A DNA stretch of 62,729 nucleotides, the filler included, from Asterionella formosa (Eukaryota), in assembly GCA_002256025.1 (NCBI GenBank). It is 10 parts of 10 records of this genome, joined end to end, with 100 filler letters (N's around TTAATTAATTAA, not from the genome) between each part and the next. Parts side by side here need not be neighbours in the genome. Positions count along the whole stretch, not along the records: positions 33,042 to 57,894 come from NKIB01002129.1; 9 more parts are not named here. The stretch is one strand, 5' to 3'. This document shows, piece after piece, positions 3,129 through 62,285 of the stretch. Under the pieces are notes generated by a model. It was not told the origin of the DNA, did not search any database, and saw only the letters and a program-made list of their open reading frames with translations. Position numbers and translations under genes: made by a program. Position 1 is the first letter of the stretch. Every line of letters begins with the position of its first letter.

Positions 3129-3228
3129 NNNNNNNNNNNNNNNNNNNNNNNNNNNNNNNNNNNNNNNNNNNNTTAATTAATTAANNNNNNNNNNNNNNNN
3201 NNNNNNNNNNNNNNNNNNNNNNNNNNNN

Positions 3229-11027: not shown

Positions 11028-13649
11028 CTAGTGGCAAAGAGACATTCCAATGTTCCGTGCATTGGAACTTGCACTGGCCACAGTCCAGAACCAGCGACGA
11101 AAGCTTGCATCAGTGGATGCATCGTAAAATCTAAATTTTTCACGAAGCTCTTGTATGTCTGAAGGACTTAAGGATGCCAACGCTGGGAAGTGCACCAGTT
11201 GTTGCTCGTGTGGGTCTGCATGGGAGGGTGCGAGCCGAGTGGTGAATCGCCGACACATTGAGTCACCTTCGTTCAGCATAAAAAACGAGGGACTGGGAAA
11301 TCTCGTCTTGGACCGCGCCTCCAGAAATGCCTTGCAATGTTGTCGGACAGCATCGTACTCCTGGCCAGTAGTATCTCGACCGGACCATACGAAAAGACTA
11401 TCGTGGTGGTCAGCCGCAATTATACAGTTATCCCAAAGGGCCAACGTGTCGGATGGGACAGCTTCGAGGGGAGGAAGTCCGGGTAAACCATCGACTCTAC
11501 AACTCCATAGCGAAGGAGCCATCATGCAGAGGCAGTCCTCAAGCGGGAGTCGAAGGAACAAAGAACGAAGTTCAGCGCGATCGTCAAAAGATCTCATGGG
11601 TCCTGGACTCACCATAGAACCACGGCGCAAATGGAAAAGTCTGTGTAATGCATCAGCCAATTCGGGAGGGAAAGCAAAATCCAACGCTGAACTGGCTGTC
11701 AACACAGGAGCATGACCCCCTTCTTCATCATCTAAAGAATCCCGACGACCATTTTTTCCTTCCACCAATCCTAAAATACGAAAGGCTCCAGAGATTCGAT
11801 GGATTGTATTGTCAAGATCACATTGGGCTTCAAATGCCAAAACTTCCATTCGGACTGGGTCCACCATCATAGTTTCGGTACCTTCTGCTTCTTCACGGCC
11901 AACGAGTGACCTGAACACAGTTTCCTTACCTAACACTACGGGAACTACACTTTCGTCCATACCAGCCAGAAAATCATGGACACTTTTCGCTACTGGAAGT
12001 CGATGTGTAATCACTCTAGTCACTAAAACTGTACCATCTTCCTCCAGATACCTTGCCGTACATTGAAATAGCGCATATTTGTGTGCGCTTAGCACAACAT
12101 CCTCATTCACTTGTAGCATAATTGACAATGTGGAGAGTGGATCGTATCGTCCCATGCGGAGTCGGGTCAGCGTTGATTCCACGACTTCAACCTTTGGTAA
12201 GTTATTCGTCATCATTCCATGCTTGGCCGCCAATGATGCACCGATGGCAAATGCCGATCGCTCATTGGGTAACAGGACTTGGGCTTGGTTGTAGATTATC
12301 TCTGTCGAACCCACGACATGCGTCGGATGGATAAATGATGACATGCGCAAATCAATCAAGCATTCACTCATTTGATTGAGTAACGAATCCATATCGACAG
12401 TCCTGGACATGTGAGTTTGTGTCATGACATGAGTTAAATTCGATTGAAACTGTGTTCCTTGATGAAAGGATTCATGCGGAAGGGCGTAGCCTCCACTCGG
12501 TTCCACCAGCGCTTGAAAGGCAGGCATGCCCAGGGCATGCAAACCTCCACAAAACACATCAACGCCTATCCCATTTTCCAAGGCATCCTTGCCAATCAAT
12601 GAAAAGTACGGAATAGCAATTCTCGTTTCGTTTTGATCCACGAAATCTGGTTTGTCAGGTCGGACAAGACTCCCATCTCCCATATTGGGACATCCATTGG
12701 TAAAGAGGAGTATCCGTGAGGTGCGCGAGGGTGCTCCAAAGTTGGCAATATCCATGGCAGCTTGCAATGCTTCGCCTGTGCATCGCATCTGTGCTGTCTT
12801 TGTTGGTGGTGCTATCCATGGGGACTCCGGTTTGTTGGAATCAGTATCGCCTCGTTGCCTGGCTAATTTCCTGCGTCGCAGCATCTCCTTCCTAGAGATT
12901 GACTGCGTTTTACCTTCACCAAAAATGGCTGCCATACAAAACCAAAACGTGGTCAGCATCTGGTCATCAGACAAATATGCCCGATTCTCTATTTGGCTTC
13001 GCCTCGCCATCAGCTCTTGATCCGTTTCGTCAACATTCGAAGGAAAAAGCACGTCAGCAGAGGCCATGCCAGTATGTCCAAGTTGATAGATCCGAATCGA
13101 TTCATCAAAAATAACCAACCCTATCCTCACTTGTGTCTTGCTGTCTAGTGATTTCAAAGTTGCCTGAAAGGCCTTACCAATGGCATTGGCTTCTACCGCT
13201 TCTAGATTTCCATCGACTACCAGTACAATGTTTAGCGTGCCTAGTTGTTCCGGTGCATTCGAAATGCTCTGCCGGTATTCGACGATGGGCGATACCATAA
13301 TACTTGATAAGTCATTGTAATAGTCAGTCCCGCTGGCATCAAACATTTCGTTCGGGGCGACATTGTCGGCTCCACATAGGGGACATGTCCACGCCTGCGT
13401 CGCGGCGTCAAAAGTAGCATACAAGCTCATGTAACTCAAGCATGTCAAGCATAGAATGGGCGGTATGTCCTTCACGACGGCTTTGCTGTCGTTGATGCCC
13501 ATGGGCGTCCAAACCATGCCGAATGGAAGCTCGCAAGAATGTTTCAGGCCGGGTCCTGACGGACATTTAGACGAGGTGAAAATGGCGCCATCGCCAGCAC
13601 GATCGCGGTAGCATGGATGCTCTTTGGGGTCTGTTGCCGCTGATGCCAT
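11028..13649 (-). CDS. Sec23/Sec24 family COPII coat-like protein
   Basis: LPFGMVWTP, zinc finger CxxC...W.CPLCGADN, vWA trunk (RCTGEAL..A, RILLFTNGCPN.GDG), gelsolin-like segment (DHHDSLFVWSG), EGDSM.RRF..RL.PS. Confidence 0.85.
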   Translation of the reverse strand: MASAATDPKEHPCYRDRAGDGAIFTSSKCPSGPGLKHSCELPFGMVWTPMGINDSKAVVKDIPPILCLTCLSYMSLYATFDAATQAWTCPLCGADNVAPNEMFDASGTDYYNDLSSIMVSPIVEYRQSISNAPEQLGTLNIVLVVDGNLEAVEANAIGKAFQATLKSLDSKTQVRIGLVIFDESIRIYQLGHTGMASADVLFPSNVDETDQELMARRSQIENRAYLSDDQMLTTFWFCMAAIFGEGKTQSISRKEMLRRRKLARQRGDTDSNKPESPWIAPPTKTAQMRCTGEALQAAMDIANFGAPSRTSRILLFTNGCPNMGDGSLVRPDKPDFVDQNETRIAIPYFSLIGKDALENGIGVDVFCGGLHALGMPAFQALVEPSGGYALPHESFHQGTQFQSNLTHVMTQTHMSRTVDMDSLLNQMSECLIDLRMSSFIHPTHVVGSTEIIYNQAQVLLPNERSAFAIGASLAAKHGMMTNNLPKVEVVESTLTRLRMGRYDPLSTLSIMLQVNEDVVLSAHKYALFQCTARYLEEDGTVLVTRVITHRLPVAKSVHDFLAGMDESVVPVVLGKETVFRSLVGREEAEGTETMMVDPVRMEVLAFEAQCDLDNTIHRISGAFRILGLVEGKNGRRDSLDDEEGGHAPVLTASSALDFAFPPELADALHRLFHLRRGSMVSPGPMRSFDDRAELRSLFLRLPLEDCLCMMAPSLWSCRVDGLPGLPPLEAVPSDTLALWDNCIIAADHHDSLFVWSGRDTTGQEYDAVRQHCKAFLEARSKTRFPSPSFFMLNEGDSMCRRFTTRLAPSHADPHEQQLVHFPALASLSPSDIQELREKFRFYDASTDASFRRWFWTVASASSNARNIGMSLCH

Positions 13650-29107: not shown

Positions 29108-31428
29108 AGGATGATCAATTGTTGGGATTACAAATACGGAATGACTCTTCCCCTTTCAGTAATTCAATAGCTCCTTTTCGATTTGGTGGCTGGCCAACCA
29201 TCAATGTGGACAAAAGAAATCGGTAAGTGCTATCATCTTTGGATCAATCCACAACTGTTAGAAAAACTGACACATGTGTGTTGCTTCCTTCAGGATAATG
29301 ATAGACAAACAGTTTTTGCAAGTTACAAACAGCAGCGTTGGAGCCCATTTATTGATCGATGCTTTCTTTTCCAATCTTCAACTGACACGCACATTATTTT
29401 GCAGAAATATGCATCAGTTACTTCCTCAATTTGTGGTAAGTGAAGATAGAAGCGAAATGCATGTTGTCGTGTAGGCAAAATATGAACAGCTAACAACTAA
29501 TTGCTTCTCTTTATTAGTATGATTGGAAAAAGAAACGGATGAAATACTATTTCATCCGTTTCTTTTTCCAATCATTTTCCCAATACTAGTAGTATTGGGA
29601 AAATGCGTGAATGCAAACTCACATCCATCAGGAATAAAAAGAAAGCAGGGGAACAAGGGCAAGGCAACCAGTACTACTGCAACAACCTTCAGAATTGGAT
29701 TGGGGGGAAGGTGGAANNNNNNNNNNNNNNNNNNNNNNNNNNNNNNNNNNNNNNNNNNNNTTAATTAATTAANNNNNNNNNNNNNNNNNNNNNNNNNNNN
29801 NNNNNNNNNNNNNNNNTAGTTGTTTAAAGGCCATCACCAAGACAAGAGATTTTGTCCCTTTTTTAACAGGTTTTGAGGATGAGCAGTGATGATGAGCTTC
29901 TCGATCCTTGGATGGCAAGAGTATACTCTGCAGTAGTAGACAAAATGGTTGTAAATTATGGTAACAATCAGCATTATATATGCCACCATCCTTCAGTGGA
30001 GACTGTTGACATTGCTGATGTTACTCCTTTGCAAGGAGGAAAAGCATTTATCCATGGGATTCTAGAGCACTGGTAATAGTTAAGAGGAATAGTGTATGAT
30101 TTTATGCAGTTACAATGTCCAAATGAATTATTGCTGTTCCATTTTTAATCCAAACACAGTTCCAGTACATTACCTTATACTCCCTCACAAAATATACCTA
30201 CTAGTACATGCCGTATGTACACTGGTGAGACATGTATCATCGTGGTACCAGGTACCAGGTCCAATACCAGCTTATCGCTCTCGGTGTGAGTGATATGCTG
30301 ATGATGTGATGCTCGATTTCGACATCAAGCATTACATCCAAGCTGATTCTGGATTCCGTTTCTCCATATTCTCGTGTGTAGAATTTGTCGTATGTAGATG
30401 GCTGGTACAAACGGAACACACCGACCTCAGTGTCCGGTAAAATGGTTGTGCAACTCATCATCAGACATCTACCGGACACTTACGCTGATTTTCGTAGAAA
30501 TGTTCGGACAGTAGGCCGGTTTTTCAGCCGAAGTCTGAACTTCCGTTCATTCCCATTTTATAATTTAACACGGTATATCTAGTACTACTATGTTGAACTT
30601 GGAGTGAAGTTTGATCATTTGAGGGAAATATCGGACGAACGGCCTTTTTTTCTGGTAGCTGTTTTCTCGTGGAATTTTACATATGTAGTAGATGTCTTGA
30701 TGGAATCTGTGTTTATGCACTTCGATGCAAATTACGTAAGTATCATGTGTGAATGTGCAATTGTCAACTATCGTACTGGTATCTTAGGAACCAGCGTCAC
30801 CAAGCAAAAAGGCAAGGACTTGACTGTGGTACATACGTGGTCTCTCACGATAGGACCCCTGTTGTACCTGGTACCTGGTACCTACCATACCATACCATAC
30901 CATACCATGTACCTACCGGTACTAGGATACAGAACTTCGATCCAAATTATGGCTTGGTGCCCCCCCCAAAGTACATCAGGTACACACCGGCCCATTGTAC
31001 CAGTAGCTGGTTCTACATTTGTAAAATTTAGCACAACCCAATATTTGTTTTGAATACATAAAAGTAGAGTCATCCTAGTTGATGTCATTCATTTCCTCTT
31101 CATTAAATATATGAATGAACATACCACTTGTAAATAATAAACCATCATGAATCTCTTGACAATTACATGCCACATGCACTGAGGAGCCACAGCCTCACAC
31201 TTGATTGCTACACTCACCATGATGATACCTCTGTTTGTCATTGTTTGATCTTCACCATCAACTCCTTGCTATAACTATGATCGACCAGCAATGCCATCCT
31301 CATTGAGTCTCAGATGTTCTTGGTGACANNNNNNNNNNNNNNNNNNNNNNNNNNNNNNNNNNNNNNNNNNNNTTAATTAATTAANNNNNNNNNNNNNNNN
31401 NNNNNNNNNNNNNNNNNNNNNNNNNNNN

Positions 31429-32941
31429 GCTGAAATCAGCGGAGTTGGAGGCCCAATTGCGGTATTGCAAAAGGGAACGGTTAAATGGAGCATACAGGAC
31501 GACTTCGGTCATATTCACCATTTTCGTATTCCTGGGACGTATTATGCCCCTGATGCACCTTTCCGCATGTTTTCCCCTCAACACTGGAGCAAGGAAATCA
31601 ACCGATGTAACAGCAGAGGAAAGGGAGCATGGTGCGCTACGTATGAGGACAAGGTCACCCTACATTGGGGAAACAATGGCTATGTTCGAAGTGTGCTATT
31701 GGACCCGGCAACAAATGTGGCAACTTTGTTTTCTGCGCCAGGGACAAAAAGATACCAGATCTACGAAGCAATCATGGTAACTCAGGAGCCTAATGTCAGG
31801 ATTAATTGTTTTAACATGAACATGGTTACTGATGACGAATGTTCTGGTGAAGAGGGTGATGAGTCTCCCCTCATTCGGCCATGCGACTACAATGATAATG
31901 CCGCACTCATTTGGCCAGTTCCCAACGGAGGGGTGGGAGCCCTTGCCAATCGGAAGAGAGGCGACAAATTGATGGCCCAAGTGAGTGATGTTGCGCCCAA
32001 TGCCCTTCTTTTCCACGATTCAGCCACTGGTCTGACGGAAATCGAGGATTCCGACGCCCTGACGGCTACCGCCGAGCTTCTTCGTACCCACTATCAGCTG
32101 GGGCATCTTCCGTTTAAGCAAGTTCGAAATATGGCCTCCACCGGTTTCTTGCCCAAAAGGCTGTTGCAGGGAAGAATTCCAAAATGTACTGCTTGCATGT
32201 ACGGCAAGGCCACCCGACGAGCATGGAGATCCAAGGCTCTGCCCAGCAAAGTGGGAGGGAGAACAGCAACCTGTCCTGGGCAGTGCGTGTCGGTCGATCA
32301 AATGATGTCGCCTACGCCTGGCCTGATCGCCCAACTCAAGGGGATCCCAACGACGCAACGTTACACTGCGGCCACAGTGTTTGTGGACCATTTTAGCCGC
32401 CTCTCATTCGTGCACCTGCAGAGGTCCCTCACCTCCGATGACACTGTTCGAGCCAAAAGAGCTTTCGAGAGATTCTGCGAGTCCCATGGTGTGAAGGTGC
32501 TTCACTATCATGCGGACAACGGTCGGTTTGCCGACGCGCTGTTTCTCCAAGACGTAGCCGATCAGCGACAGGAAATCACGTATTGTGGGGTCAACGCTCA
32601 CTTCCAGAATGGGGTGGCAGAGAAGCGAATTCGGGACCTGCAGGATATGACCCGCACGGCGCTCCTGCACGCTACGGCCAGATGGCCTAAAGTTATATCG
32701 AACTGTCTGTGGCCATATGCTCTGCGCACTGCTAACGACGCAATAGTCAGTGCTCCCCGGCGACTGGACGGAAAATCGGCGGCCAGCGTTTTCTCGAGGA
32801 CAGATGTGTCTCCTAAGATTGGGTCCTTTCGCCCCTTTGGGTGCCCCGTGTACGCCCTATCTAATCAGCTGGCGGCAGGACAGAGCATACCTAAGTGGTA
32901 CAAGAGAGCAAGGGTGGGAGTGTACCTGGGACAATCCCCCC
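31429..32941 (+). mobile_element. Ty1/copia (CoDi-type) pol fragment: protease C-terminus, GAG-pre-integrase and integrase; open across the whole contig
   Basis: GTVKWSIQDD, SPQHW, H..LGH...C.AC.YGK zinc motif, VSVDQM, FVDHFS, YHADNG.F, HFQNGVAEKRIRDL, PFGCPVY, GVYLG.SP. Confidence 0.93.
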
Positions 32942-33798
32942 NNNNNNNNNNNNNNNNNNNNNNNNNNNNNNNNNNNNNNNNNNNNTTAATTAATTAANNN
33001 NNNNNNNNNNNNNNNNNNNNNNNNNNNNNNNNNNNNNNNNNTTCGTTTTGTCATATTACATCCTACGCTACAAACTTGCGTAGAGGAATATACTGCTTTG
33101 CACAAGCGAATCTTTGCGCTTCTTTTGTGCGTTTTACGCGTCTGCCTGGCGGTCCGATCATAAGTACCAGTAGGTCTATGTTGGTGCAATGTGGTGCAGC
33201 GACAATATGACATCAGCAAGGAGTGCCTTAGTTAAAAATTCATTACCGGTAGTAACCTATATATATGATACAAAATGCTTGCAATACTTTATTAGTACCG
33301 GTATGTCCCATTACATGTATGTACCGGGTAGCCTACGGCCGTTGGCTACTACAAAATACATATCTTATATGAATCTGATCGTGATCCTATGTAGAAAATA
33401 TCACTACGGTGGTGCAGGCCGTAGCACGGATTTTATATATGGGTAGTCTGATGGTGCAATTTTGGTTTCTCTAAGTAATAGTGGTGCAATCGGTGGTGCA
33501 ATTGTGGTGCAAATGCCAATGGGCAGTTGAATTTACGAATAGTTTTCTCTTTTTCAACCCTGTTTGGGAAAAGTCCCGTTGGTCTACATTCAAGTGTCAC
33601 TGTTAGGGTTAGCTGTTTTTGGTGTGGAACACATTGAAGCTTGAGCCAAACTACTTCAACTCTGTGTAGACTTGCCTTCCGCTTCTGATCCTTTCCTTTG
33701 GTGCACAACCATCCACCTTCTTCTCCCTACTCTGCCTCTAGTCTTCCTACATAATCCTAGTTAAATTAATTCTCTTCTCTTTTTGATTCCTTCCTCCA

Positions 33799-36700
33799 AT
33801 GTCCAGGCAAACTACACAGACCCATTCCCGCCAGACTCATGTGCCACAGTACTCCCAACCCCCTCGACACTCCACTCGGCTTCTCCCCCATACTTGTTCC
33901 TCTCAACTCTCTCATTCTTCACCACCTGCAGAGACACATGATGTCACAGTTCCTCATCTCTTTCGCGGTTTTGCTGCACAATATCATGATCTCCGGACCC
34001 AACTTGGTTCTTCCCCACACCAAGTTCCTCTTCCTGATTCTCCTCCTGCAATTCCACCCATGGATTTTTCTGTCTCCTCTGATCCAGGCCACATAGAAGC
34101 ACATATTACTACTAGACCTGGTCATCCTCGCTTTCACCGCCAGTCACTCCAAGAATGCTTCCTTTTTCCTATTCTGAACCAACAACACACTGGGTCTATC
34201 TCCCACACCTTCCTTGATGACGCCACTACTGTCCTTAGTGCCCCAGCATTTGGTTCTCAGTTTCACCAATCTTCGCCTCCTGCTTCACTCCCTCTTACTA
34301 TTCCTCTTACGCAGGCTGAACTTGATGCTCTTCCATGGGAAACTATTGCTGCTGACTATCTCTGCAGACATCACTGCAGGATGCCCAGTTCTTCTAGAAC
34401 TGCTACTGAGCGCCCCATACTCTTGGGGATTCCTCCATGTTCCCCTACTGAGCGCCCCATACTCTTGGGGATTCCTCCATGTTCCCATGGATCGTCCTTT
34501 CCCAACCCATGTCCTCCTGATCCTGATCCAGATCCAGATGACAACCTTTCTCACAGTGATGTACCTTCCACAGATCATTCTCATTCTTCCAACCCTTTTC
34601 TCCCTCGCTTTCGGCCCACTCCTCCAACTGCAACTGAACTTGATACATTTCTTCGTGGTCTCCGCATCCCCTTATTACTTTGTCACAGGCGTTCCCCACT
34701 TGTTGCATGGTTTTACAGTTCTATGGGCACTCTTTTGGGACCTTATGGAGGTCAATACTCCCAGTTGGGTAAAACAATTCCTAAACTTACCACTCTTGAT
34801 GCCTCTCAATTTTTTGTCTGGTACAAGTCCCTCCGCTCTGCTCTTAATTCCACTGGCTTCCATGTGGATCTCCTACCACAGGCCATGGATTTACTTCATG
34901 ATGCTGATCTTGGTGAAACTCCAACTAATGGTGGCCTTGTTGCATCTCTGCATATTCTATTTGGTCCTCACTTCTCTATCTCTGCAACTTCTGCTTATTT
35001 TGAGGGGGAACATCATCGTTTTGGCAATACCCTTTACTCTGTCCTCTCCTCATCTGATGTGCTGCCACTCAGATATGGAGACAAAGCCAAAGACCTTCTT
35101 GACAAACACAGTCCCACTGGTGATGATTTTGGGGTGGTATTACAAGATCTCCTGCTCTTCTTTCACCCTGGACTCCGAGATAACCTTGCCCCTGGCTTTG
35201 CTCAACATCTTCCATCTGCTCCCCAATATACTATCCTGGGTAACCAAACTAATCTGGATGCCCTCACCAAATATAATACTCTCTATACACGATGGCTTGA
35301 GCTTCTATATCTTTACCCAGAACACTCCACATTTCGCCCAGTTGATCTCCCTCTCCACTACATCCAAGGCCTTGGTTCCAATGCGCACTTCCTTTAAGAG
35401 GAACTATGTTCATTACATTGCCTGAAATCTGATGACATACGGCTTTACTCACAGCATGTCGTGCGGCTTCAGCGGTCCCTCTTTGGCTGCAAGTTGAAGG
35501 GTTATATTCAAAGCTCAAGTCCCTCTTGCGATACCTTCCGACTCCTTGCACTAATCATTCAACCAATGATGCAATCCACCTGCACTCAGCAACAGCCATG
35601 TCCTCAACCACTCCTGACAACTTTCCTGTGTCTGCCAGCGATATTGCGCACACTCTGGACCGTGTTCTTGATGGTCACATCTGCACTGATCAACACCCTA
35701 TTCATGCTCTCATTGTCTCCGCTATCCAGTGCGCACGGATATCAAACCCGCATGGCTTATGTTCTTACACATGGTGTGGCGTGAAACACGATCCTCTCTG
35801 CTGTTGCATTTGTTTTGGCAGCAACCATAAAACAATGGACTGTTGGCATCTCAATGGACTATCTGACAACAGGAAAGAATTGTAAATCAAAGCAAAAGAA
35901 GCAAAGCAGTCCAGATTACCACCTTTTGACAGTCCTTCACGTCTCCCCCCGCACTCATCAGCTGTCCACAAATCATTCCCCTCGCCCACTCAGTGTTCAT
36001 GCTATCTCCAATTCACTGAATGTCAATGAAATATTTTCTTCCCCTCTTGAATCCCTTCTCAAAGAAGTTCACTTGACTGCACAGGACCATACACAACTCC
36101 CTTTGGACACTGGTCCTCATCTTTATAGCTGGGATGATCATGGACAATCCAAACCTGTCACCCCATCAGTATATCACACAGGAATGGTGGCTTTTGCAAA
36201 TCATATCAGAGAAGAGTATGAAAAAGACTTTGATCTTACCCATTCATCTAATGACCCACTGAGATGATCTTGCACCCCCCTTTGTCACTACTTCATTCTC
36301 AATCCACCTTGATCACAGCTTCCCTTGAATATGCCGCCCACTTATGAGATGGTGAATCTCTCATGCATGTGGATACTGGGGCAAATGGCAATGTCACTTG
36401 TATGAGCAATGAGCTGCACAATGTGGTCAGTTCCAATGTGGTCTGCCAAACAGCCAAAATTGGAGATATAGATCAAGTTGGGTACATTTGAGCCTTATTG
36501 CCATGCTTCATTTCTGCAGATCGGACTGTTGAACTTGAAATTTCGTTGCCAAACACCGTTGAACTCCCCCATTACCGACGTCGGTCCCTTAGTGTCCATG
36601 CTCTCAAACAACTTGGTTATGAAGCTGACCATAGACTTTGTCGAAATGGGAATTTGCTATGGTTAAGACTACCAAATGGAAAAGAATATCTTTTTAAACT

Positions 36701-39543
36701 CCTTACGATTGATGATGCAGATTATCTCATTGTTCGCCTCCAAAAACCGACTCTCCCAACTACCACTTGAGCCATTGCTTGATCTCGTCAACACCATGAA
36801 ACCAGCTGGTTAATATCATCTTATCCATCTACGCATGGGATGTCCTGGTTGTTGCTCTATGGAGCGAATTACTGCTCAATGGTAAAAGCGTGCGTTGTTG
36901 GATTACCTGCCAATGTTATCATCCCAGACACTTTTTCTTGCCCTTTCTGTCTCAAAGAAAAACAACCTTCACTATCCAAACATCTTACCAGGGAATCACC
37001 ATTTAAAGTAGTTGGCCAAATGCTTCGCTCACATGGATTTTGGTTTTTATGGCAAACAATCCTGTCGGGGCTTCAAATGTTTCTCAGTTGTCACTGAAGC
37101 TATCTCCAATCACCGTTGGACATTCTGTTGGCAATCAAAAACCACCCCGGTTACACTTGTTCTTTGGATTGTACAACATGTTCAAATTAGAACAGGCCTA
37201 CAAGTTCGACGCATTCGTATGGATGGGAAATGTTTGATAATGATACATTGAAAATGCAACTTTCACTTCTGCACATCGCTGTTGAACCTACTGGAGCATG
37301 CACCTCATCTCAGAATGGGAAAGCAGAGGTGTCTATCAAACTGATTGGTTCAACAGCTCAATGCCTCATGTATGGAGCACAAATGGACCCTACTTTCTGG
37401 TGTTTTACTGTTACCTATGCAACTTTTCTCGTCAATGTGCGCCCCTTTGATGCTCATAATGGCAGAACTCCTCACGAAGTTTTTCATAAGCATGCTCCTA
37501 ATCTCTCTATGGCATTCATTTTTGGATCTCCTCTTCATGTTAAAAATCTTCGAGCAAGTCGTCATCAGCCAGATTCAAACAACCTCCTGGGGACATTTGT
37601 GTGTTTTCAAGGTAGGGCTCACATTTACCAATACATTGGTGATTCTGGACGAGTCCAATATGCGCACCATGCAGTTGTCGATGAGTTATGTGTTCATCAA
37701 CTCCATCATGATCGTTCCCCTGCGGCTATAGCTTTGCTGGACCATCCTGCTGGCGATCAATCTGTTGGAGCTCACACTCTAGCGCTACAACATGCTATAG
37801 AGGGGAGGACCTTATTCCCAGCTGCACTCCATGGCTTCCGCTTGACATGGCTGTCAAAGAGATCTCTGACCTCTTGCCTGATGAGGCTCATGGCCTTCAA
37901 CTGGAATATCTTCCTGACTTAGCTCATTTTGAGATCAGAGGCATTGATCCCTATAGCGCATTTGGATGTCGCCTGACCAAAGGCCCCACAAAACTCTTAT
38001 GTAGTTGTATACTTCTGCAGATAAATGGTGACGATGTGCGCACGGTTAATGATGTTGAAGAACTCTTAGACGGTTATGTTAGTGCTACACATGGCACCCT
38101 CTCTCTCATTGACACACATGACCCTCGATTCATCCCAGGTGTCCTCACCAACCTCACCATACTTTCTGTGAAGAAACCGCGCGCTAATGGTCACTGGAAA
38201 GACTATTTCAGTTTTGGTGCAGGTGATATTAGTATGCTCTGATCAGGATTTACCATTTCTGGTCTGACATCACATCCTGCTAGTCAATGTCCCCGCTCAC
38301 ATGCCGCTTTATTTATGAAACTCCCTCTCAATAAACAACCCTGGAAAGATTTAGGAGTTGAAATGTTTGCACATGTTCAAGGCCGCAAAGATGCTTCACG
38401 CAAGTGGGGCAAACATATTGACAAAGTGATCTATGGACAACTTGGTCTCACCAAATTGCTGGCATTCAACATGAAGAAGCTTTAGCAAGTTGTGTCCCCT
38501 ACTCAGACATGGAAATGAAACTCGCCATTAAGTCATATGATTTTGAATATCGCACTCTCCTTGGTCAATTCCAACATCTGTGTCAATGGACGCGTCTGGA
38601 CATTCAAAATGCAGTACAACGCGTTGCGCAATATCAAAATGCTCCTGGGATGCTCCATTTTGCGGGTCTCTTACAAATTGCAAAATATCTACGACGATAT
38701 CCTGATATTCCATTAGCTTTCAATCGTAAGCTGTCATGTGGTTTTATTCTTTCAGTTGCTCATATTAGTCAAGCAGCTCCCTGGCTCAGGGAAACAACTG
38801 TCATTAGTGTTGAGGCTCATCAGTTTGATGAGGAACAAACAATTTGGCATCTTCCTCCAATAACTTTCAATACTATTACCACTACCGATGCGGTTGCCAT
38901 GCCTAACCTTCTCCAGAATCAGAACCATTTCTCTGGTGTTAAGTCTACTCCATGCAAATAGGAAGATTATTTTGCTGCCCAAATTATTGCTCATGCAGGG
39001 AAACTTACTTACAATGTTTGTCATATTGCCACTAAAACGCAGGCTCTCAAAGAACATGTTCGTCATGCCCATGTATCCTTTCACCGTGTTTCATCTGCTT
39101 GCAATCTAGCTGATCACTTCACTAAGGCATTATTTTTTGCGACTTTGCGTGCACACTGCATGACTATTATGGGATATGCATTTATTGATCATCTTCATGG
39201 GGCCCTTGTTCCTTCACTTGATTCTTCTCCACCCCTGCTTTGACAACTACTGATTTCTTTCTCTTGTCTATCTCCATCCTTCATGAGATGGGGGGGATGT
39301 CGTAAATCACCAGTATGTCCATCATGTATGTCTGTATGTCAGACACTGATGGTTGCCGCTACCCGTTTTGCTGTTCTTTTATGTTTGTATCTATTTACTT
39401 TTACTTTACTATAATCACTCTTTTAACATACCCCTTACAAACTCCTATTGAGCTTGTCAGGTTCGTTAATTGACTCACCCTACTCTCCTCCTCCTCCGTT
39501 GTCCTCGTCGTCGTTCGCTATCTTATCCTCTTTCACAACGGCA
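33799..39543 (+). mobile_element. degenerate Ty1/copia element (gag, PR, IN, partial RT, RNase H, PPT, 3' LTR)
   Basis: Long gag-like ORF with CxxC...H....C knuckle (about 35800), protease HVDTGAN (about 36366), HMDF and QNGKAE integrase motifs, YRTLLGQFQHL..WTR.DI..AV RT segment, NLADHFTKAL RNase H, purine tract 39285-39297, then LTR. Many stops and frameshifts. Confidence 0.85.
39298..39543 (+). repeat. 3' LTR of the copia element
   Basis: Begins TGTCGT right after the PPT and ends ACGGCA (near-inverted terminus). Confidence 0.6.
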
Positions 39544-40307: not shown

Positions 40308-40578
40308 ATCAAAAATTCACTTCGATGTGTACAAGTTAGTTTTCCGTATGCCCCTTTACTCAACGGCAGAACGAAAAATTCATTGAATTGACAGCACAGG
40401 GTACACCGGCACGTTACGGTCATTTGGCATTAAAAATATTTATTTAGGTGATCAAAAATTCACTTATATGTGTAAAAGCAAGTTTTCCGTACTCAACGGC
40501 TTGACAAAAAAATTCATTGAATGACTGCACAGGATATACCGTTACGTTACGGTCATTTGGCTTTAAAAAATTTAATAT
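40308..40578. repeat. diverged tandem duplication of about 140 bp upstream of the micro-exon gene
   Basis: ATCAAAAATTCACTT...AGTTTTCCGTA...AAAAATTCATTGAAT...ACGTTACGGTCATTTGGC occurs twice. Confidence 0.8.
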
Positions 40579-40935
40579 AGGATAAAAAGAGAACTAAACT
40601 ATGTACCAAATTCAGGACAATTGCCGTAAAATTGCAGACGTGTATGACTTCAGAAAAGATTCATTTATGTACATATGACTATGACTGTGCGAGAATTAAG
40701 TAATGTCGTCCACATGATGTTATTGTGTTGATAACAAAAAGAACATCATGGTCGTTTCGTTTTGAACAAAATTACCGGTACTCGGGAAAAAGTCACGACA
40801 CTTGCTTTGGACAAATTACCGGCATTCGAGCATAATTCATATGACTATTGGCCTATCGGTCCCAAACTTTTCATTTCACAAGGTTCATAAAACTCAAAAT
40901 TGAACATCAATATACTCGGTTTCTCACTCATCATC

Positions 40936-42452
40936 ATGAAGGCCATTCGTTCTCTTCTCTTGCTTGCTGCGGTTTTCCGCTCGACGATGGCAGACTCTAC
41001 CATGACCTCAGAGGTACGCCAAAAACCGGGATGATGCATGCGTTTGCATCTGCCTGCGTTGAATCAAACTCTGGTGAAGAGTGAAAAGATCGGTCGAGGA
41101 GCATCAAACTGCTGCGGGTGTACGTTTTACTTACATTTTGAATCTATTTTACTTTTCCTTCATCTGAACCCTGACAGCATAAGAGAGTCCTCAAGGTATG
41201 TTGCAAAACAGTAACTTAAGAGAACAAAACCAACGAAACTGGCAGCAAAGTCATTCAAACGAGTACCGTGCTGGCTACTGTTGTACATTTCACTAAGCAA
41301 CTCTTACAATTTGATCCTTTCCCCTCAGGCTTCCAAGGCCCCAACAGCTCCAGTTGTTCCTGTAACCAAGGTATGTAGTTATAGTGACAAAGCTCCTTGC
41401 TTGATGGTATATTTCTGCATATTTGTCCAAGAAAATCATGGAGTTTTTTGATCTCAAGCTCCTCAATGAATTGGACTCATTCAGAACTGCATTGTTAATT
41501 GACTCTATTGTGACTAATCTAAAGCATATTCATTCTTTGACATTCACAGCCTCCCAAGGCTACCAAGGGTCCCAAGGCTCCCAAGGTATGTCCATCACCT
41601 TGCTTGATGTGTTGGCATCATCATAAGAAACATACCCAGGGGAACATGAACTTTGCTCTCAAATTAATGTTAACCTGCACATACGCTTTCAGTGCAATGT
41701 CAATTGGGTTGTGCTGACATGACTAACACGAAAATTTTGACTTCACTGTACAAATTACCTTCTTATGAGCAGGGACCTACTGAAGGTACTAGGGACCTTA
41801 AAAAGGTATGTTTTGTGGTAGTAGCTGAAAACCACATTCACATGTGCCCACAGACTCATCCAAACTGTTGTGTGCATAATCATGTCCACTGTTGGCTACT
41901 GTTGTACATTTCACTAAGCAACTCTTACAATTTGATCCTTTCCCCTCAGGCTTCCAAGGCCCCAACAGCTCCAGTTGTTCCTGTAACCAAGGTATGTAGT
42001 TATAGTGACAAAGCTCCTTGCTTGATGGTATATTTCTGCATATTTGTCCAAGAAAATCATGGAGTTTTTTGATCTCAAGCTCCTCAATGAATTGGACTCA
42101 TTCAGAACTGCATTGTTAATTGACTCTATTGTGACTAATCTAAAGCATATTCATTCTTTGACATTCACAGCCTCCCAAGGCTACCAAGGGTCCCAAGGCT
42201 CCCAAGGTATGTCCATCACCTTGCTTGATGTGTTGGCATCATCATAAGAAACATACCCAGGGGAACATGAACTTTGCTCTCAAATTAATGGAAACTTACA
42301 CCTAAGCTTCTATGGCAATGTCAATCTTTCCGGTTGTCACTTTCATCGCTGAAGTGAATGATCAACTTTATCTCAAGCAGTTTTTATGGAACAAACAATT
42401 CATACCCAATTTACTCACCTCCTTAACTGTGTTTCTTTTTCCTTAGGCCTAA
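40936..42452 (+). CDS. micro-exon gene for a secreted Lys/Pro-rich silaffin-like precursor (96 aa); exons 40936-41013, 41178-41195, 41329-41370, 41550-41585, 41773-41805, 41950-41991, 42171-42206, 42447-42452
   Basis: Seven GTA(C/T)G...(C/T)AG introns, all phase 0. Spliced product: MKAIRSLLLLAAVFRSTMADSTMTSE-HKRVLK-ASKAPTAPVVPVTK-PPKATKGPKAPK-GPTEGTRDLKK-ASKAPTAPVVPVTK-PPKATKGPKAPK-A*. The last exon is the least certain. Confidence 0.75.
41272..42290 (+). repeat. 398-bp direct repeat (41272-41669 and 41893-42290, period 621) duplicating two micro-exons
   Basis: The copies look identical by eye; the ORF track shows the same 67-aa spurious ORF twice. Confidence 0.92.
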
Positions 42453-42759
42453 AGCAACAATGTAATGAATTAGTTACATTAGATTAACATGCTCTTCAAT
42501 CAACACTTCATCTTTGTTTTGAAATCGTTTCGGATTTTTTTGTGGCCAAGTCCCAGCATTTCTGTTAATAGCCATATAAATATCTAAAGTTTATGAATGG
42601 TATACCCTCTGTTCATTTATTGTTGCAACCAAACTTTTGGTCACTGTCACTTATCTATCATCACAACAAACTCCAATCATTGCTAATAGCCATTTCTAAT
42701 TAAATATCATTCTGATGATTGGTGTTATAATACAAGTTCTAACTTGTCTAAAATTAGGT

Positions 42760-43050
42760 GAAACTAACCTCAGATTTTTGTCCTATTTCGAAGAATTATG
42801 CCCCAATTGACTGGAGTGTTCCTTTTCTTGGGTAAGCCAAAAACTTGGGCATAACTGCACTGGAATGAACAAGATTTATCTGCCCCAACTCATTTGCCCA
42901 GCGCATGAGGCCAATGTAACTTTGATAAAGTTGGATGTCATCCTCTACAAGGACTTCTTTAGAATCTAATTCTGGGTAGTAGTCTGGAGCGGCAGGTGTG
43001 CCCGGGCAGGAATGGCCATAATTGGTTTTGAGAGATCCAAGACAATATAA
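42760..43050 (-). mobile_element. copia RT fragment (downstream part), split by the Harbinger insertion
   Basis: Minus strand reads PAAPDYYPELDSKEVLVEDDIQLYQSYIGLMRWANELGQI, the copia YHPELD/YQSLIG.LRW motif. Confidence 0.8.
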
Positions 43051-46000
43051 GAACCAATCTTAACAGAGATACAAATTATTTTTTGTTGTATCTTCAGAAA
43101 AAAATGAATCTTCACAGAGATACATTTCAAAACTATATCTCTGTAATGGTAAAACAGTTAGCCGTTTTCTTTGTATCTCTGCAAACATGTGCATCAGACT
43201 CAACAAAAATATTTGCAGTGTGCGCTTCAATTATTCAACATGTCTGACCATCATCACTACTGTAACAACAGTGACAAATGGACCGGAAGAACCTGACAGT
43301 TGGGATGTCATTGACAATCTTGATATAGAAGGGGAACAACAGAAAAACTTTTTGTTAATTGCAGCGATTGCATTATCATTTTTGGAGCCCTATGAACGAA
43401 ACTTGAAGCCAGCGCAAATTACAAAATGGGAGCATCAACGAATTTACTGGAATGAGCATGCCACAAAGAAGCTTTTTCATGAGAATAGATTTCATCGTGA
43501 ATATCTCATGTCTCTTGAAGCTTTCAACCAACTACTGGAACTTCTTCGACCTTCCATCACAGTTAATTTTGTCAAATCAAATGCAAGTTCCGGTTTTCAC
43601 AGCTCAAATCAGCATATTTATCCTTAGTTGATCCTTGCCATTGGACTTTGCTGGCTTGCAGGCGGAAACCTCATAGAACCACATTTGTCATGTCTATGGA
43701 GTTTCTTATCCATATGATTATGCCATCACTAAAACATTCCTTGATGCAGTGAACTCATTCACAGCATTATCAATAAAATTCCCTACAACAAACAAGGAGA
43801 AACAAACAGTGATAAATGGATTCCTTAACAAAAGCGAGCAGCAACTATTTTGTGGAGGCATTGGTGCTATAGATGGAAAAAGGATTGTGATGGCTTCCCT
43901 CAAGCATATTGGTCTGGGCATTATACGTCATATGGATTGAATGTTCAAGCTGTTTGCAACATAATTGTTGTTTCCTTTACTTTCGTGTCATGGCACCAGG
44001 AAAATGTCCAGATCAGAAGGCATTTGAAAGAACAAAACTTTTCAGATTGTATCCAACCTTCATCCAGGAAAATACATAAGTAGGTGATGCTGCATACACA
44101 TTGACTGATCAAGTGCTCTGTCCATTTGTTAGAAGTCAAAGGGAATCAACAAACAAAGATGCATACAACTATTTCCTTTCACAACTCCGCATTAGAATTG
44201 GAGATGACGTTTGGATTGCCCACCAATAAATGGAGGATCCTCCTGAGGACATCCTTGTCCTTCAGGATGAAGAAATCAGTTACAATTATTTCTGCTTGTT
44301 CCCGCTTACACAATTTTTGCCTACTCATGGATTATGATAAAAAGAAAGAACTTGCTAATGGAATGGAATTTCTGAATAGTTTGGAGCTTGTTGATCCAAT
44401 GCCCAATGCTCCTCTTGGGTGGGCTCATCTTCCAACTGTCAGGAAGTTGGATGTAGTACAAGGTACTTCACAGATTCTGCAAATTATTCTTGATGTTGTC
44501 ACCAACAATGGGTTTAGGCGACCTACGGCCAATGTGTTGCACTGACAGTGAGAACTGATTGAAATAGGATCAATGTAGCATACAAACTATAAGTGGAAGG
44601 AATTAGGTAATAACAAGAACTAAGAAGATATATTATTGGTAGCCTAATTATGATTAGATGCATCCTCTTCAGCTGTTTGTACGAGAGCTACAGAATTCTA
44701 GGTCAGTGCATTCATAGCTTCAAAACGTTTGGCTTCAAAAATTAAAAAAATGACATTGTTCTCTTGATACTCTTTACCATCACATTTTTGTGACACTTTA
44801 TTGCTTGCTACTTCAGTCCAAGCTTCCTTTAACTTTTTGCGGTAAATATTTACAACATCCACTAGTTCCTTCTCTCGTTTTACAAGAAAAGTTGCTCGAG
44901 AAAATTCTGCATTGGAACTTTGAGAGGCGAGTGTCATTTGTGTACAGCGCTCATTTGCTTTTGAAAGTTCTATAAGCGCGTTGACCACTTGTTTGGAAAT
45001 GTTTTCAAACTACTTAATGGGGAAATTTCCTTGCATCCAACTCACACATAGTTGGAGTATTCCCTAGACACAAAATATCTTGCCGATGTTTCTCATCGAA
45101 GAAGATATTAATCGATAGTATGTGCCAGTCTTCTTAATATATTTGGGAGCAGTTGCAGCATTTATTTTCCTCTGATTCTTGGGAGGTCGTCCCTCTTTCT
45201 TAATAGTCTGGTGGGACATTCCAGAATCATCATCCAATAAAATATCAGCAGGAACTGGAGATGTAAATGCAGACAATTGGGAAGGAGATAATTCAGAATG
45301 TGTACTTGAGTCATTGGCAATATCTTCTCTGGTAGTAGTAAGTTGCTTTGATAGTAGTAGGCGAGGAGACATCCTTGTTGATGATTCAGGAGTAATGGTA
45401 GAGCCTTTTCTTTTCAGATGCTTCTTTAGACGAGGAGACAACCTTGTTGATGATTCAAGAGCAAAGAGAGCGCTGTTTCTTTTCAGATACTTCTTTGATT
45501 CTTTTGATGACTTTTTGTTGTACCCAATCATGTCTCGAAGATCAAGAGTCTTTATCCAATTCTTATTGTCTGTAATCTTTACCATCTTTGTTTGTTTCTG
45601 TATCCGGCAATTTTAAAAAGAACGCAAATACAACGAAGTTGTTGTAGCGATATCTGTTGAATGAGAATGTCTTTTACTGTCATCAAAGACCCTTCCTCGT
45701 TGTCAATGAAAAAATCAGCAGGAGTGATACATGCTGTTAAAGTATCTAGCTTACGTCAATAGCTGCAAGCTTACTCATCCAACTATTTGTATTGCTAGCT
45801 TTGGTGATAACTTGACTTTTCATATGTTTTAAGACTCCAAACTAAAGTTGAAAAAAGATTTCACACTTTTCTGGTTATGAGCTAAAACTAAAACTCCAAA
45901 GATGACCTTTCTTAGATTGTTGTCCATCGCAACAACTGTTCATTCCTGAACACGATCTGTTTCCCACCATGATTACTCCAATTGTTCACACTTTACAATA

Positions 46001-57894: not shown

Positions 57895-58778
57895 NNNNNN
57901 NNNNNNNNNNNNNNNNNNNNNNNNNNNNNNNNNNNNNNTTAATTAATTAANNNNNNNNNNNNNNNNNNNNNNNNNNNNNNNNNNNNNNNNNNNNCTCCTT
58001 TTCTTGTCGTTGTGGTGATTGAAAAGTAATTCTTGTTGTGCCCTTCTGCCAAAGTAGTGTTTCTACCACTTGTCGTAGAATTCTACGCAACTGATTGAAT
58101 TACGGGGAGTGATAGAAGGGCATACTTATATATAAACCTGTTCGCATATGTAAAAATAACATTCATTTGCGTGTGTGTCGTATGATGTCGCTCGTGTTTG
58201 TAATTCTTGACACTTGTCCATTACAGTACTAACATAGTCTACCTGAAATAATTTCTCTACCTCCTGACGTCGTTGAGTTCTACATGAAATCATGACCATG
58301 ATGATGCCGGAACTTTTGTCCATCATGAAATATGTTTGTACATATGCCCTTCGTGATAGTAAACCGGTATCAGTACAATAGGTACATTTATTGGAAAAAT
58401 ACCGGTGGTACCACTCCACATGGTTCGTTATAATCGTCATGTAGAAGAAGGTTGAAGTTTAGCCCAATGTATGTTTGATACCAGTATTTAACATAGATTA
58501 ATGACCCCGAGGGTCATTTTAGCTTACCCGGTATTCAGCTAAGCAAAATTCCGGAAATGATTGAGAATTTTTCCCTTTCCACCTACTGACAAAATGTTGG
58601 TACAAAAGCCTCCAAGACAAAGTGAAAGTGAGAAAACTTGCTTACCGGTACCATGTTTCTGTCTCACGATCAACCAGCTGTCATGCATGCATGCAATATT
58701 CTTTTTTAATTGGAAGAGACGAGAGAAGTGACACAGTAGAGCGTGTGATAGACCTACCACAGCTATGACAGGTACAAT

Positions 58779-61117: not shown

Positions 61118-61232
61118 NNNNNNNNNNNNNNNNNNNNNNNNNNNNNNNNNNNNNNNNNNNNTTAATTAATTAANNNNNNNNNNNNNNNNNNNNNNNNNNN
61201 NNNNNNNNNNNNNNNNNCAAAACCGATTTAAC

Positions 61233-62285
61233 ATGAATGATTTAACTCCCCAGGTGAAACAGGCCATATTGCATGATGGAAAACTGATTGATGTTGTATG
61301 TTTTGATTTCATGGCTCAGGTTAAGAATCTCTTGACAAATGACACACTAATGTCACCACAAAATGTGTCATTTGATTTCGTCAATCCGTGTAAAGCACCA
61401 CAACCCACCAGTGTCAGATCCGAATTTCACACTGGTACCTGGTGGATAGATGCCCATGAATATTTATGTTCTCAGCCAAATGACTTCCTTGTTCCACTAA
61501 TGTTCTTTATTGACAAGACACACACGGTTGAAAAAGGAAAGTACACAATGGAGCCTGTCCTAATGTCACTTGGTATTTTTACTACCAATGTAAGAAATAA
61601 GGTCAATGCATGGCGGCCAATCGGATTGATCCCAAAGCTGACCTCATCAAGTCTATCTGAAATCCAGTCCCTAACCCCTGATCAAAAGGAATTCGATTAT
61701 CACGCTGTCCTTGGTGTGATTCTTGAGGGGGTCAAGAATGTCCAACAAGCTGGTGGATTCAAACACATTTTCAATTTCGGAGGCAATCAATTTACACTTA
61801 ATGTGAAAGTTCCGGTTGGTCTAATTCTCGGTGATGCTGAAGGTTTAGATGGACAATGCGGACGAAAGAAAACATATCTAAAGACTGCCAGAATGTGTCG
61901 TGAATGTGATTGTCCGTTTGATCAAACGGACAATCCATCTCATGAATGCAGTCCTGTAGGTCAGATTGATTACGAGGAACTATTAATCCGGGGCATAAAA
62001 GATTTATTGGATAAGGTGAGCCAAAGATTCATCTATCCCTTTTGGTATCAGTTGTGTTTTGGTGGCGATCCTAAAGGCGAGAAGAAATACAAAGTGGCTA
62101 AGAAGAAGATCTACGCAAAGTTGCACAGGGACTTTTACAGGTTCAAGAAAAGCAAATTAGACGAAGAATCAGTGGAGACGACAGATGAAAGAATCAAGGT
62201 GGCAAATGAAACTAGGAGTGAATATGAGTATTTCAAACGGTCAATGAAAGAAGTTGCAAGACAATTGAACTTCACTCCAGTTTAG
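61233..62285 (+). mobile_element. Plavaka (CACTA/CMC-related) transposase, truncated or chimeric
   Basis: SEFHTGTWW, PLMFFIDKT...G...EPV.MSLG, RNK..AWRPIG.IP, YH..L..IL, ILGDAEG.D..CG, CRECDC. Family-like sequence ends near GGDPKG (about 62078). Confidence 0.8.

Follow-up and report, generated by a model that had tools for sequence, protein, structure and literature searches.

A transcribed micro-exon gene missed by gene callers encodes a putatively secreted, possibly silaffin-like precursor with two pentalysine clusters

Within a 62.7-kb stretch of DNA (the whole stretch analysed, hereafter the window) lies an almost certainly real gene that gene callers miss, with its coding sequence divided among eight micro-exons. 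The gene is transcribed, splicing at the predicted GT..AG sites takes out all seven of its introns (133 to 240 nt), and the mRNA holds a complete 96-codon frame. Judging by its N terminus, the product is probably secreted. A silaffin-like reading of it is plausible, and association with silica is the role that we favor, if still short of calling it probable; the micro-exon form would be new among silaffin-like proteins.

All coordinates are positions in the window, and the gene is on the + strand (Table 1). Its eight phase-0 exons (78, 18, 42, 36, 33, 42, 36, and 6 nt, within 40936-42452) splice to 291 nt, comprising 96 codons and a single terminal stop and yielding a 96-aa product; the nearest in-frame stop 5′ of the ATG is at 40888. 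Splice sites are canonical and in phase 0, as had been predicted: the donor of E1 is GTACGC and the other six are GTATGT, while six acceptors are CAG and one is TAG. Every internal exon has the lysine codon AAG as its last codon, and six of the seven AGGTATGT sites on the + strand of the window fall in the gene, against about 1.1 expected per strand. Outside the duplication described below, the introns have no mutual similarity and thus no introner-like repeat.

Table 1. Features of the micro-exon gene, in window coordinates
Feature	Position	Strand	Length and content	Evidence
5′ untranslated leader, minimum extent	40904..40935	+		RNA contig starts at 40904-40905 in X1, X2, X5, X6
E1	40936..41013	+	78 nt; start codon, signal-peptide-like segment, start of pro-region	RNA contigs in 4/4 runs
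Intron 1	41014..41177	+	164 nt	Removed in contigs linking 41013 via 16 extra letters to E3/E6
E2	41178..41195	+	18-nt micro-exon with first R-x-L (R-V-L)	Variant seen in spliced contigs of X1, X5
Intron 2	41196..41328	+	133 nt	Gene model and RNA contigs
E3	41329..41370	+	42 nt; spacer module, last codon is first lysine of pentalysine cluster 1	
Intron 3	41371..41549	+	179 nt	GT..AG joint (E3-E4) in 12 X1, 5 X2, 0 X5, 1 X6 contigs; placement common to intron 6
E4	41550..41585	+	36 nt; four lysines at spacing 3, two PKA.K motifs	
Intron 4	41586..41772	+	187 nt	GT..AG joint (E4-E5) in 11 X1, 3 X2, 0 X5, 1 X6 contigs
E5	41773..41805	+	33 nt; linker with second R-x-L (R-D-L)	In P0001-P0003
Intron 5	41806..41949	+	144 nt; in frame, stop free	GT..AG joint (E5-E6) in 7 X1, 1 X2, 1 X5, 0 X6 contigs
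E6	41950..41991	+	42 nt; identical to E3	
Intron 6	41992..42170	+	179 nt; 100% identical to intron 3	GT..AG joint (E6-E7) in 7 X1, 6 X2, 1 X5, 0 X6 contigs
E7	42171..42206	+	36 nt; identical to E4	
Intron 7	42207..42446	+	240 nt	GT..AG joint (E7-E8) 42204->42445 in 0 X1, 1 X2 (depth 3780), 0 X5, 0 X6 contigs
E8, coding part	42447..42452	+	6 nt; Ala and stop	Gene model and RNA contigs
3′ untranslated region, minimum extent	42453..42626	+		Contigs 42445-42626 (X1) and 42445-42509 (X2) run on from E7/E8 joint
Duplication copy 1	41272..41669	+	398 bp; end of intron 2, E3, intron 3, E4, start of intron 4	100% identical to copy 2
Duplication copy 2	41893..42290	+	398 bp; end of intron 5, E6, intron 6, E7, start of intron 7	

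Spliced RNA contigs came from four lake or freshwater runs (X1, X2, X5, and X6), representing at most three samples from three studies. The original prediction had named RNA as the check on its seven junctions, and spliced contigs from the four runs have GT..AG joints at the predicted positions, with the E1-E2-E3 link provided by a variant allele; the joints have sides of only 19 to 36 letters at a likeness of 90, settings prone to foreign matches. Spliced contigs reach depths of 2493 to 3780, versus 13.5 to 739 for intron-holding contigs, and the contigs that keep intron 1 are all shallow (39 in X2, 13.5 in X6). Bins with no RNA coverage were not counted as evidence. The link from E1 through the variant E2 to E3/E6 is carried by one contig in X1 and one in X5. 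This E2 has two substitutions (His to Gln and one synonymous) and keeps R-V-L-K, and the accompanying E1 has five substitutions and an in-frame 3-nt gap; the joint is seen in this variant and not in the exact allele of the window.

Because E3 and E6, and likewise E4 and E7, are letter-identical, a joint from E4 to E8 is indistinguishable in the contigs from one between E7 and E8, and 278 of the 448 pieces placed in X1 fit two positions. The same letters that form the intron 7 joint in X2 are placed as 41583->42445 in one X1 contig (depth 2793). We rejected this placement ("E4->E8") and 41013->41948 ("E1->E6") as exon skipping, and 42204->41771 (which goes back 434) as an extra repeat, all three being alternative placements of ordinary joints. 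The contigs lend no support to the proposal that the peptide is varied by skipping exons. Separately, loose ends of contigs in the lake runs point to transcripts with other modules.

A 5.8-billion-protein collection also holds traces of splicing at this locus. Its entries for the locus are intron read-through mistranslations only, in agreement with the claim that ORF finders miss the gene. Intron 5 is retained in P0001 (from ENA). In P0002 (from JGI), E6 and E7 are joined exactly as predicted, with intron 6 removed and intron 5 retained, and in P0003 (also JGI), E5 and E6 are joined exactly as predicted, with intron 5 removed; P0002 and P0003 are independent, partly spliced products. ORF callers read through intron 5 because it is in frame and stop free, the next stop not coming until 88 codons past exon 5. 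Taken with the RNA contigs, and with the variant for E1-E2-E3, these products bear out the eight-exon model junction by junction.

It is most improbable that the spliced transcript is real but noncoding or derived from a transposable element, with an accidental 96-codon frame. Retroelement and transposase remnants do flank the locus on either side, and the protein searches described below found no relatives, both of which would suit such an origin. All eight exon lengths, however, are divisible by 3, and the joined exons are free of internal stops, whereas retention of any of introns 1 to 4, 6, or 7 brings in a stop within 6 to 43 codons (intron 5 is stop free). Exon GC content (0.55) exceeds that of the introns (0.34 to 0.45), lysine codon usage is uniform (16 AAG, 1 AAA), and the gap in the variant alleles preserves the frame while R-V-L-K is kept, all of which argue for a coding gene.

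The coding region contains a perfect tandem duplication, each copy comprising two exons with the intron between them and parts of the flanking introns, with a start-to-start spacing of 621 bp. The order of the unique part of intron 4, E5, intron 5, and E6 is found independently in P0001 and in P0002/P0003. Peptide number in this gene would grow through tandem duplication of such an exon-intron-exon block, here 398 bp and 100% identical.

Searches for relatives returned only the locus itself. With the read-through ORF 41674-42072 as the query, only P0001 to P0003 matched among five candidates in the protein collection, where the word-indexed search covered proteins of 72 to 252 aa; P0002 residues 75 to 114 matched only P0002 and P0001 among four candidates, and when P0002 was run by HMMER against all 1.84 billion representatives, P0001 and P0003 were the only other proteins matched. 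These sequence searches found no homologue beyond the locus, although their failure says little about true absence because the queries carry only 25 to 37 true coding residues. In the PDB, a query of 26 P0002 residues gave one nonsignificant sequence match, to a PilP protein (E = 0.96), and Rfam and tRNA scans were empty. When 18 nt of E3/E6 were sought in metagenomes, 27 loci came up that we dismissed as chance, since they matched over 18 to 21 nt and held nothing else of the gene.

The layout of the product is as claimed: it opens with a signal-like segment, after which R-V-L precedes a Lys/Pro/Thr unit and R-D-L precedes a second, identical unit. At the N terminus, K2 and R5 precede a hydrophobic core (9-residue hydropathy maximum, 2.78), and small residues occupy positions -3 and -1 relative to 19/20, the signal segment having been judged by eye and by hydropathy. 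R.L motifs occur at residues 29 and 65, with another at residue 5 inside the signal. The pentalysine expression K..K..K.{1,2}K..K matches exactly at residues 46 to 58 and 83 to 95, and both matches are created only by splicing of E3/E4 or E6/E7; in the raw frames of the window it has a single, unrelated match at 23461. The lysine-array pattern is found in the window in E4 and E7 only (four overlapping matches, zero expected). Successive lysines are separated by PP, AT, GP, and AP, and PKA.K occurs four times, twice per repeat unit. The cited motifs are present, and the case for them is stronger than first stated: both repeat units fit the pentalysine silica-targeting expression, and both have two copies of PKA.K.

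An address other than the cell exterior was weighed against these features. The product would, under this alternative, enter the plastid by a diatom-type bipartite presequence, in which a short signal is followed by an aromatic residue, or another internal compartment, and its Lys/Pro/Ala-rich tail would bind nucleic acid in the manner of histone H1. Residues 11 to 14 read A-A-V-F and are followed by a Ser/Thr-rich segment; diatom plastid signals accept F and Y at +1, and both F14 and the Y that replaces it in the variant allele fit. Lys/Ala/Pro repeats also resemble nucleic-acid-binding tails. We nevertheless consider internal targeting very unlikely: a signal of 13 residues with Val at its end would be atypical and short, the segment after A-A-V-F includes two acidic residues, and the R-x-L sites and tandem peptide layout would have no role there.

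Under the favored, silaffin-like reading, the N terminus would direct the product into the ER, with cleavage likely after residue 19; a short pro-piece would be cut off at R-V-L (residues 29 to 31), and the remainder would be cut at R-D-L (residues 65 to 67) to release a pair of cationic Lys/Pro/Thr/Ala peptides that are almost the same. Each of them would have a single pentalysine cluster, in which five lysines follow one another at spacing 3 and which is formed only by splicing E3-E4 or E6-E7, and may be associated with biosilica, its lysines being modified. In biochemical terms, silaffins are defined by tight binding to biosilica, coming free only when the silica is dissolved. R-x-L follows the signal peptide and stands at repeat ends in silaffin, cingulin, frustulin, and silacidin precursors (PMC4557024) and is also treated as a processing motif in PMC5501833. 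Silaffins carry lysines modified by methylation or polyamines and precipitate silica in vitro (PMC4557024). A pentalysine cluster comprises five Lys in 12 to 14 residues (PMC9650480, PMC5501833); a 13-mer of this type with a signal peptide targets GFP to silica in Thalassiosira pseudonana (bioRxiv 10.1101/2021.09.18.460806). A silaffin-like biosilica role is the likeliest of those considered because such a cluster and a signal peptide suffice for silica targeting in that species.

The product shares several features with silaffin precursors (Cylindrotheca fusiformis Sil1p and T. pseudonana Sil1-4): an R-x-L site after a signal or signal-like segment, tandem repeats of basic character with R-x-L between them, K..K arrays, pentalysine clusters matching the published expression, and no detectable sequence relatives in other species (with partial queries here). 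It differs from Sil1p in length (96 versus 265 aa [PMC4557024]) and from silaffins generally in being serine poor (Ser 6 of 96, one per mature unit), with Pro/Ala/Thr/Gly between lysines, in lacking an acidic N-terminal domain, and in its division into eight micro-exons. In centric diatoms, the silaffin-like or KXXK-motif proteins, the cingulins, and the "soluble silicome proteins" are classes set by short motifs in disordered, low-complexity sequence rather than by homology. The product resembles them in its PKA.K motif, which is enriched more than 20-fold in silica-extracted proteins (bioRxiv 10.1101/2021.09.18.460806), and in that PT-type repeats are found together with KXXK in such proteins, among them TpSil1 (PMC5501833). 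It differs from cingulins in having no Trp/Tyr-rich regions and from KXXK proteins in failing the screen of PMC5501833, which asks for KXXK with S or G as X, because its K..K spacers are P/A/T/G.

The composition of the product (K 17, A 15, P 15, T 11, and V 8 of 96 residues) bears on a second secreted identity: a Pro/Lys-rich protein unconnected with silica, whether an extensin/PRP-like wall, mucilage, or adhesion component or the precursor of a cationic (e.g., antimicrobial) peptide, whose R-x-L and K..K motifs would follow from composition. We rate this as a doubtful but substantial possibility. With few Ser, the product is nearer in composition to Pro/Lys-rich wall proteins, a pattern typical of plant PRPs and HRGPs, than to the Ser/Lys silaffins, and the plant proline-rich and hydroxyproline-rich wall proteins are also secreted and built of repetitive Pro/Val/Lys/Thr-rich units. 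Those proteins, however, are not known to have R-x-L processing sites or regular five-lysine arrays. In 51 of 20,000 composition-matched shuffles of residues 20 to 96 there were at least two pentalysine matches, and therefore lysine richness accounts for part of the signal; an abundant secreted or surface product would also suit the contig depths, which run to thousands in the lake metatranscriptomes, and the host may be one that forms no silica. The lysines, however, show no scatter but run five in a row at exact spacing 3, twice, and R-x-L stands at both silaffin-precursor positions, just past the signal peptide and at the repeat end; the PKA.K and PT-type associations with silica-extracted and KXXK proteins likewise argue against a non-silica identity. 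Of 92 silica-extracted proteins, 27 match the pentalysine expression, versus 1.5% of the non-silica background, a fraction that itself allows for matches of no silica significance (bioRxiv 10.1101/2021.09.18.460806).

In architecture, the gene resembles the micro-exon genes (MEGs) of Schistosoma, whose exons are symmetric and 3 to 81 bp long (PMC10526429): a small, putatively secreted protein is assembled almost wholly from very short symmetric exons (6 to 78 nt here). Introns here are 133 to 240 nt, unlike the MEG introns of up to 5 kb, and MEGs also vary their proteins by alternative use of exons; the host is an alga-like protist rather than a flatworm, and the likeness is one of architecture only, with no sequence relationship claimed. 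A literature search returned nothing relevant on micro-exons in diatoms. The most specific picture would be of a freshwater protist that silicifies, probably a diatom whose genome is otherwise intron poor, and that makes its silaffin-type precursor with a micro-exon gene like the schistosome MEGs, in which the modules (signal, R-x-L pro-piece, spacer, lysine array, and R-x-L linker) are phase-0 exons ending AAG/GTATGT, the pentalysine cluster arises only after splicing, and block duplication adds peptides; taken in its entirety, we think this rather unlikely.

The gene neighborhood is intron poor and alga-like. The window also holds a plant/alga-type galactonolactone-dehydrogenase-like (GLDH-like) gene, which together with a Sec23 gene falls in broad eukaryote clusters, a Mon1 gene, and a DUF6824 gene. 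DUF6824 has a diatom/stramenopile range; our literature search returned no paper on DUF6824/PF20710. From the intron-poor neighborhood, the GLDH-like and DUF6824 genes, and the freshwater origin of the RNA, the host is most probably a diatom.

Diatom silica-forming proteins are found by motif and not by homology, and few species have been studied. Genes of the type described here can hide in micro-exons, where ORF-based or prokaryote-style callers give only intron read-through artefacts; public collections hold only such artefacts for this locus, and therefore motif screens of diatom proteomes may miss small lysine-cluster precursors. The architecture cleanly illustrates how modules can be assigned one to an exon and how a gene can grow when an exon-intron block is duplicated. 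Should the silica role fail, this would still be an abundant, unannotated gene for a putatively secreted cationic peptide. Should it hold, the product would be a compact natural candidate from freshwater plankton, with two pentalysine clusters in 96 residues, and if the micro-exon silaffin reading is true, the transcripts at the loose contig ends would represent a gene family whose messages are abundant in lake plankton yet escape standard gene callers.

The plus-strand gene at 40936-42452 resolves into eight exons (E1 to E8) and seven introns (I1 to I7), and both the sequence and the exon table bear out the original prediction of eight phase-0 exons joining into a 96-residue frame. All exon lengths are divisible by three, and the spliced frame comprises 291 nt and 96 codons, with its sole stop at the end. 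Donors are GTATGT (six introns) and GTACGC (one), acceptors are CAG (six) and TAG (one), and the last codon of all internal exons is AAG (lysine). GC content is 0.55 in exons versus 0.34 to 0.45 in introns. The closest upstream in-frame stop before the ATG lies at 40888, and read-through of introns 1 to 4, 6, or 7 meets a stop within 6 to 43 codons; I5 is in frame and stop free. On the plus strand, six of the seven AGGTATGT sites of the whole 62.7-kb window fall within the gene, versus about 1.1 expected per strand; the arrangement is nonrandom.

Coordinates of the micro-exon gene and of other genes in the window
Feature	Coordinates	Strand	Description
E1	40936-41013	+	78 nt, sequence read and exon table
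E2	41178-41195	+	18 nt, sequence read and exon table
E3	41329-41370	+	42 nt, sequence read and exon table
E4	41550-41585	+	36 nt, sequence read and exon table
E5	41773-41805	+	33 nt, sequence read and exon table
E6	41950-41991	+	42 nt, sequence read and exon table
E7	42171-42206	+	36 nt, sequence read and exon table
E8	42447-42452	+	6 nt, sequence read and exon table
Sec23	11031-13649	-	intron-less, 873 aa, letter-identical to ESM Atlas record
Mon1			ORF
GLDH-like flavoenzyme			ORF; nearest Atlas clusters plant and green-algal
Threonine aldolase			ORF
PCI-domain protein			ORF
Mpv17/PMP22			ORF
DUF6824 protein	6270-7424

The gene is transcribed and spliced, and its complete frame carries signs of coding constraint; that the frame is accidental and the transcript noncoding is very improbable. 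Part of 40800-42600 was present in 14 of the 17 runs listed, 13 of these 14 recorded as RNA, and the covering runs (10 studies in all) are almost entirely lake or freshwater metatranscriptomes. Logan contigs from four RNA runs (X1, X2, X5, and X6; at most three samples, from three studies) were compared with 40600-42800 at a likeness threshold of 90. The predicted junctions from E3 to E8 were recovered as GT..AG joints, with contig counts, in that run order, of 12, 5, 0, and 1 at E3-E4; 11, 3, 0, and 1 at E4-E5; 7, 1, 1, and 0 at E5-E6; 7, 6, 1, and 0 at E6-E7; and 0, 1, 0, and 0 at E7-E8. One X1 contig placed as E4-E8 has letters identical to the E7-E8 joint. Joint flanks are only 19 to 36 letters long, which is unavoidable because the exons are 33 to 42 nt.

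At the 5′ end, one contig each from X1 and X5 runs from E1 (end 41013) through 16 extra letters and a shared AG into E3/E6. These letters match E2 except at two positions (one synonymous change, one His to Gln) and retain R-V-L-K; because they sit between E1 and E3/E6, the 18-nt micro-exon is used in splicing. Since the E1 so joined differs from the window by five substitutions and an in-frame 3-nt gap, the E1-E2 joint is demonstrated for a close allele or paralogue rather than for the window's exact allele. Contig depth was 2493 to 3780 for spliced versus 13.5 to 739 for intron-holding contigs, a poor measure of expression and one taken without a comparator gene. Exon skipping is arithmetically possible because all exons are symmetric; the RNA joints are neutral on it because identical exons leave the relevant joints ambiguous.

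The same RNA holds further variants. An alternative exon 1 (40904-41013) occurs in X1, X2, and X5, its five substitutions including A12T and F14Y alongside the in-frame 3-nt gap; X5 also contains an intron 7 contig with no differences from the window, which favors a paralogue over a strain variant. Loose contig ends at 41586 and 42207 mark lake RNA exiting after E4/E7 or entering before E4, with other short, Lys-rich, coding-like modules beyond, among them one linker variant with an ending unlike E5 and one 255-letter continuation after E7. They suggest that other exon modules are carried by paralogues or alleles, in the same or related organisms.

The expectation that ORF finders would miss this gene is supported by the public proteins. 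When the in-frame read-through ORF (41674-42072) was used as query against 5.8 billion proteins, three entries matched. By alignment, P0001 (ENA) is I4-E5-I5-E6-I6, unspliced; P0003 (JGI) keeps I4 and I6 with I5 excised exactly; and P0002 (JGI) keeps I5 and I7 with I6 excised exactly. All are gene-caller mistranslations of partly processed transcripts, and with their long flanks they confirm two junctions plus the genomic order E5 to E6. The correct product was absent from the results of three protein searches, the word-indexed tool covering only proteins of at least 72 aa, and protein searches with P0002 found no relatives.

A 398-bp block (41272-41669), spanning the I2 end, E3, I3, E4, and the I4 start, recurs 621 bp away at 41893-42290 with 100% identity, the likeness extending at 97.5% over 436 nt. 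Beyond this the introns share no further likeness, and the window holds no second copy of the gene. The repeat is an exon-intron-exon module that was duplicated in tandem, or homogenized by gene conversion, very recently, and it doubles the peptide unit.

The other genes of the window are long unbroken ORFs: Sec23 is intron-less at 873 aa, against seven introns in 291 nt here. All 12 members of its 90%-identity cluster come from metagenomes or transcriptomes. The DUF6824 protein, of a family with a diatom/stramenopile range, has one 385-aa copy at 99% identity and six further relatives at 43 to 65%, all from JGI, ENA, or Logan sources. We take the source of the window to be a freshwater alga with few introns, most likely a diatom. 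Retroelement remnants lie upstream of the micro-exon gene and transposase-like ORFs downstream. The former, retroelement-like ORFs on the plus strand (31381-39243) interrupted by N runs and frame breaks, comprise integrase/RT-like translations and a weak match to gag-pre-integrase (E 1.5e-4, short of the Pfam cut-off); between 34001 and 36000 the GC skew is strongly negative (-0.31). The latter, short ORFs at 43064-44545 (plus strand), gave no Pfam match at E≤0.001, and by motif we take them to be a decayed DDE (Harbinger/PIF-type) transposase. A Plavaka transposase domain ORF (PF18759, E 7.3e-13) at 61218-62285 adjoins an N run. Short N runs at about 31384-31428, 32950-32994, 57895-57939, and 61173-61217, each giving 15 X in ORF translations, are assembly gaps or masked stretches. 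Immediately 5′ of the gene, direct repeats at 40308-40581 and 40769-40839 comprise units of 92 and 41 nt (spacing 133 to 143 nt, identity 77 to 88%) and a 27-nt motif that recurs every 44 nt some 100 to 170 nt upstream of the ATG; they may be promoter elements.

Per-exon translations match the peptide layout originally predicted. The product (K 17, A 15, P 15, T 11, V 8, S 6) has a calculated pI of about 11, and at its N terminus a pair of basic residues is followed by a hydrophobic core, whose hydropathy peaks at 2.78 over 9 residues; position 19/20 has small residues at -3/-1. An internal basic protein, plastid or nucleic-acid-binding, is improbable. R.L motifs lie at residues 29 and 65, with another at residue 5 within the signal-like segment. 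Lysines 46, 49, 52, 55, and 58 and 83, 86, 89, 92, and 95 are spaced exactly three residues apart, and both sets match the published pentalysine expression K..K..K.{1,2}K..K; among composition-matched shuffles of residues 20 to 96, 51 of 20000 gave at least two matches. Both sets cross a splice junction, the first lysine being the final codon of E3 or E6. The PKA.K motif is present in four copies.

Judged by its motifs, the product is a silaffin-like precursor. The Sil1p precursor has a 19-residue signal peptide followed by R-x-L, with R-x-L also at basic repeat ends and modified, K..K-clustered lysines, and silaffins, frustulins, cingulins, and silacidins are proposed to share R-x-L as a general endopeptidase site (PMC4557024). 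Pentalysine clusters, five lysines in 12 to 14 residues, are described as mediating frustule targeting (PMC9650480, PMC5501833). K..K..K.{1,2}K..K is given for 27 of 92 silica-extracted proteins versus 1.5% of background, PKA.K is among motifs enriched >20-fold, and such proteins are without alignable homologues (bioRxiv 10.1101/2021.09.18.460806). The silaffin-like screen combined KXXK (X = S or G) with a signal peptide and noted PT repeats in 14 screened KXXK proteins, including TpSil1 (PMC5501833); our product differs in its non-S/G spacers and few serines.

The product would enter the ER, R-x-L processing would release two cationic peptides, and these would carry modified lysines and be incorporated into silica. 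We tentatively favor silica association, at somewhat under an even chance, because of the exact pentalysine arrays, the canonically placed R-x-L, and the PKA.K motifs; the few serines, the non-S/G spacers, and the lack of relatives found weaken it. A different secreted role, in the wall or mucilage or as a cationic peptide, is a considerable, if lesser, possibility. Searches for diatom micro-exons or microexons found nothing relevant in the literature covered, and no silaffin-like precursor is reported there in which each exon encodes one module and splicing creates the targeting cluster. Flatworm MEGs resemble this gene in design only. The gene is real and its architecture striking; its importance would hinge on the putative function.
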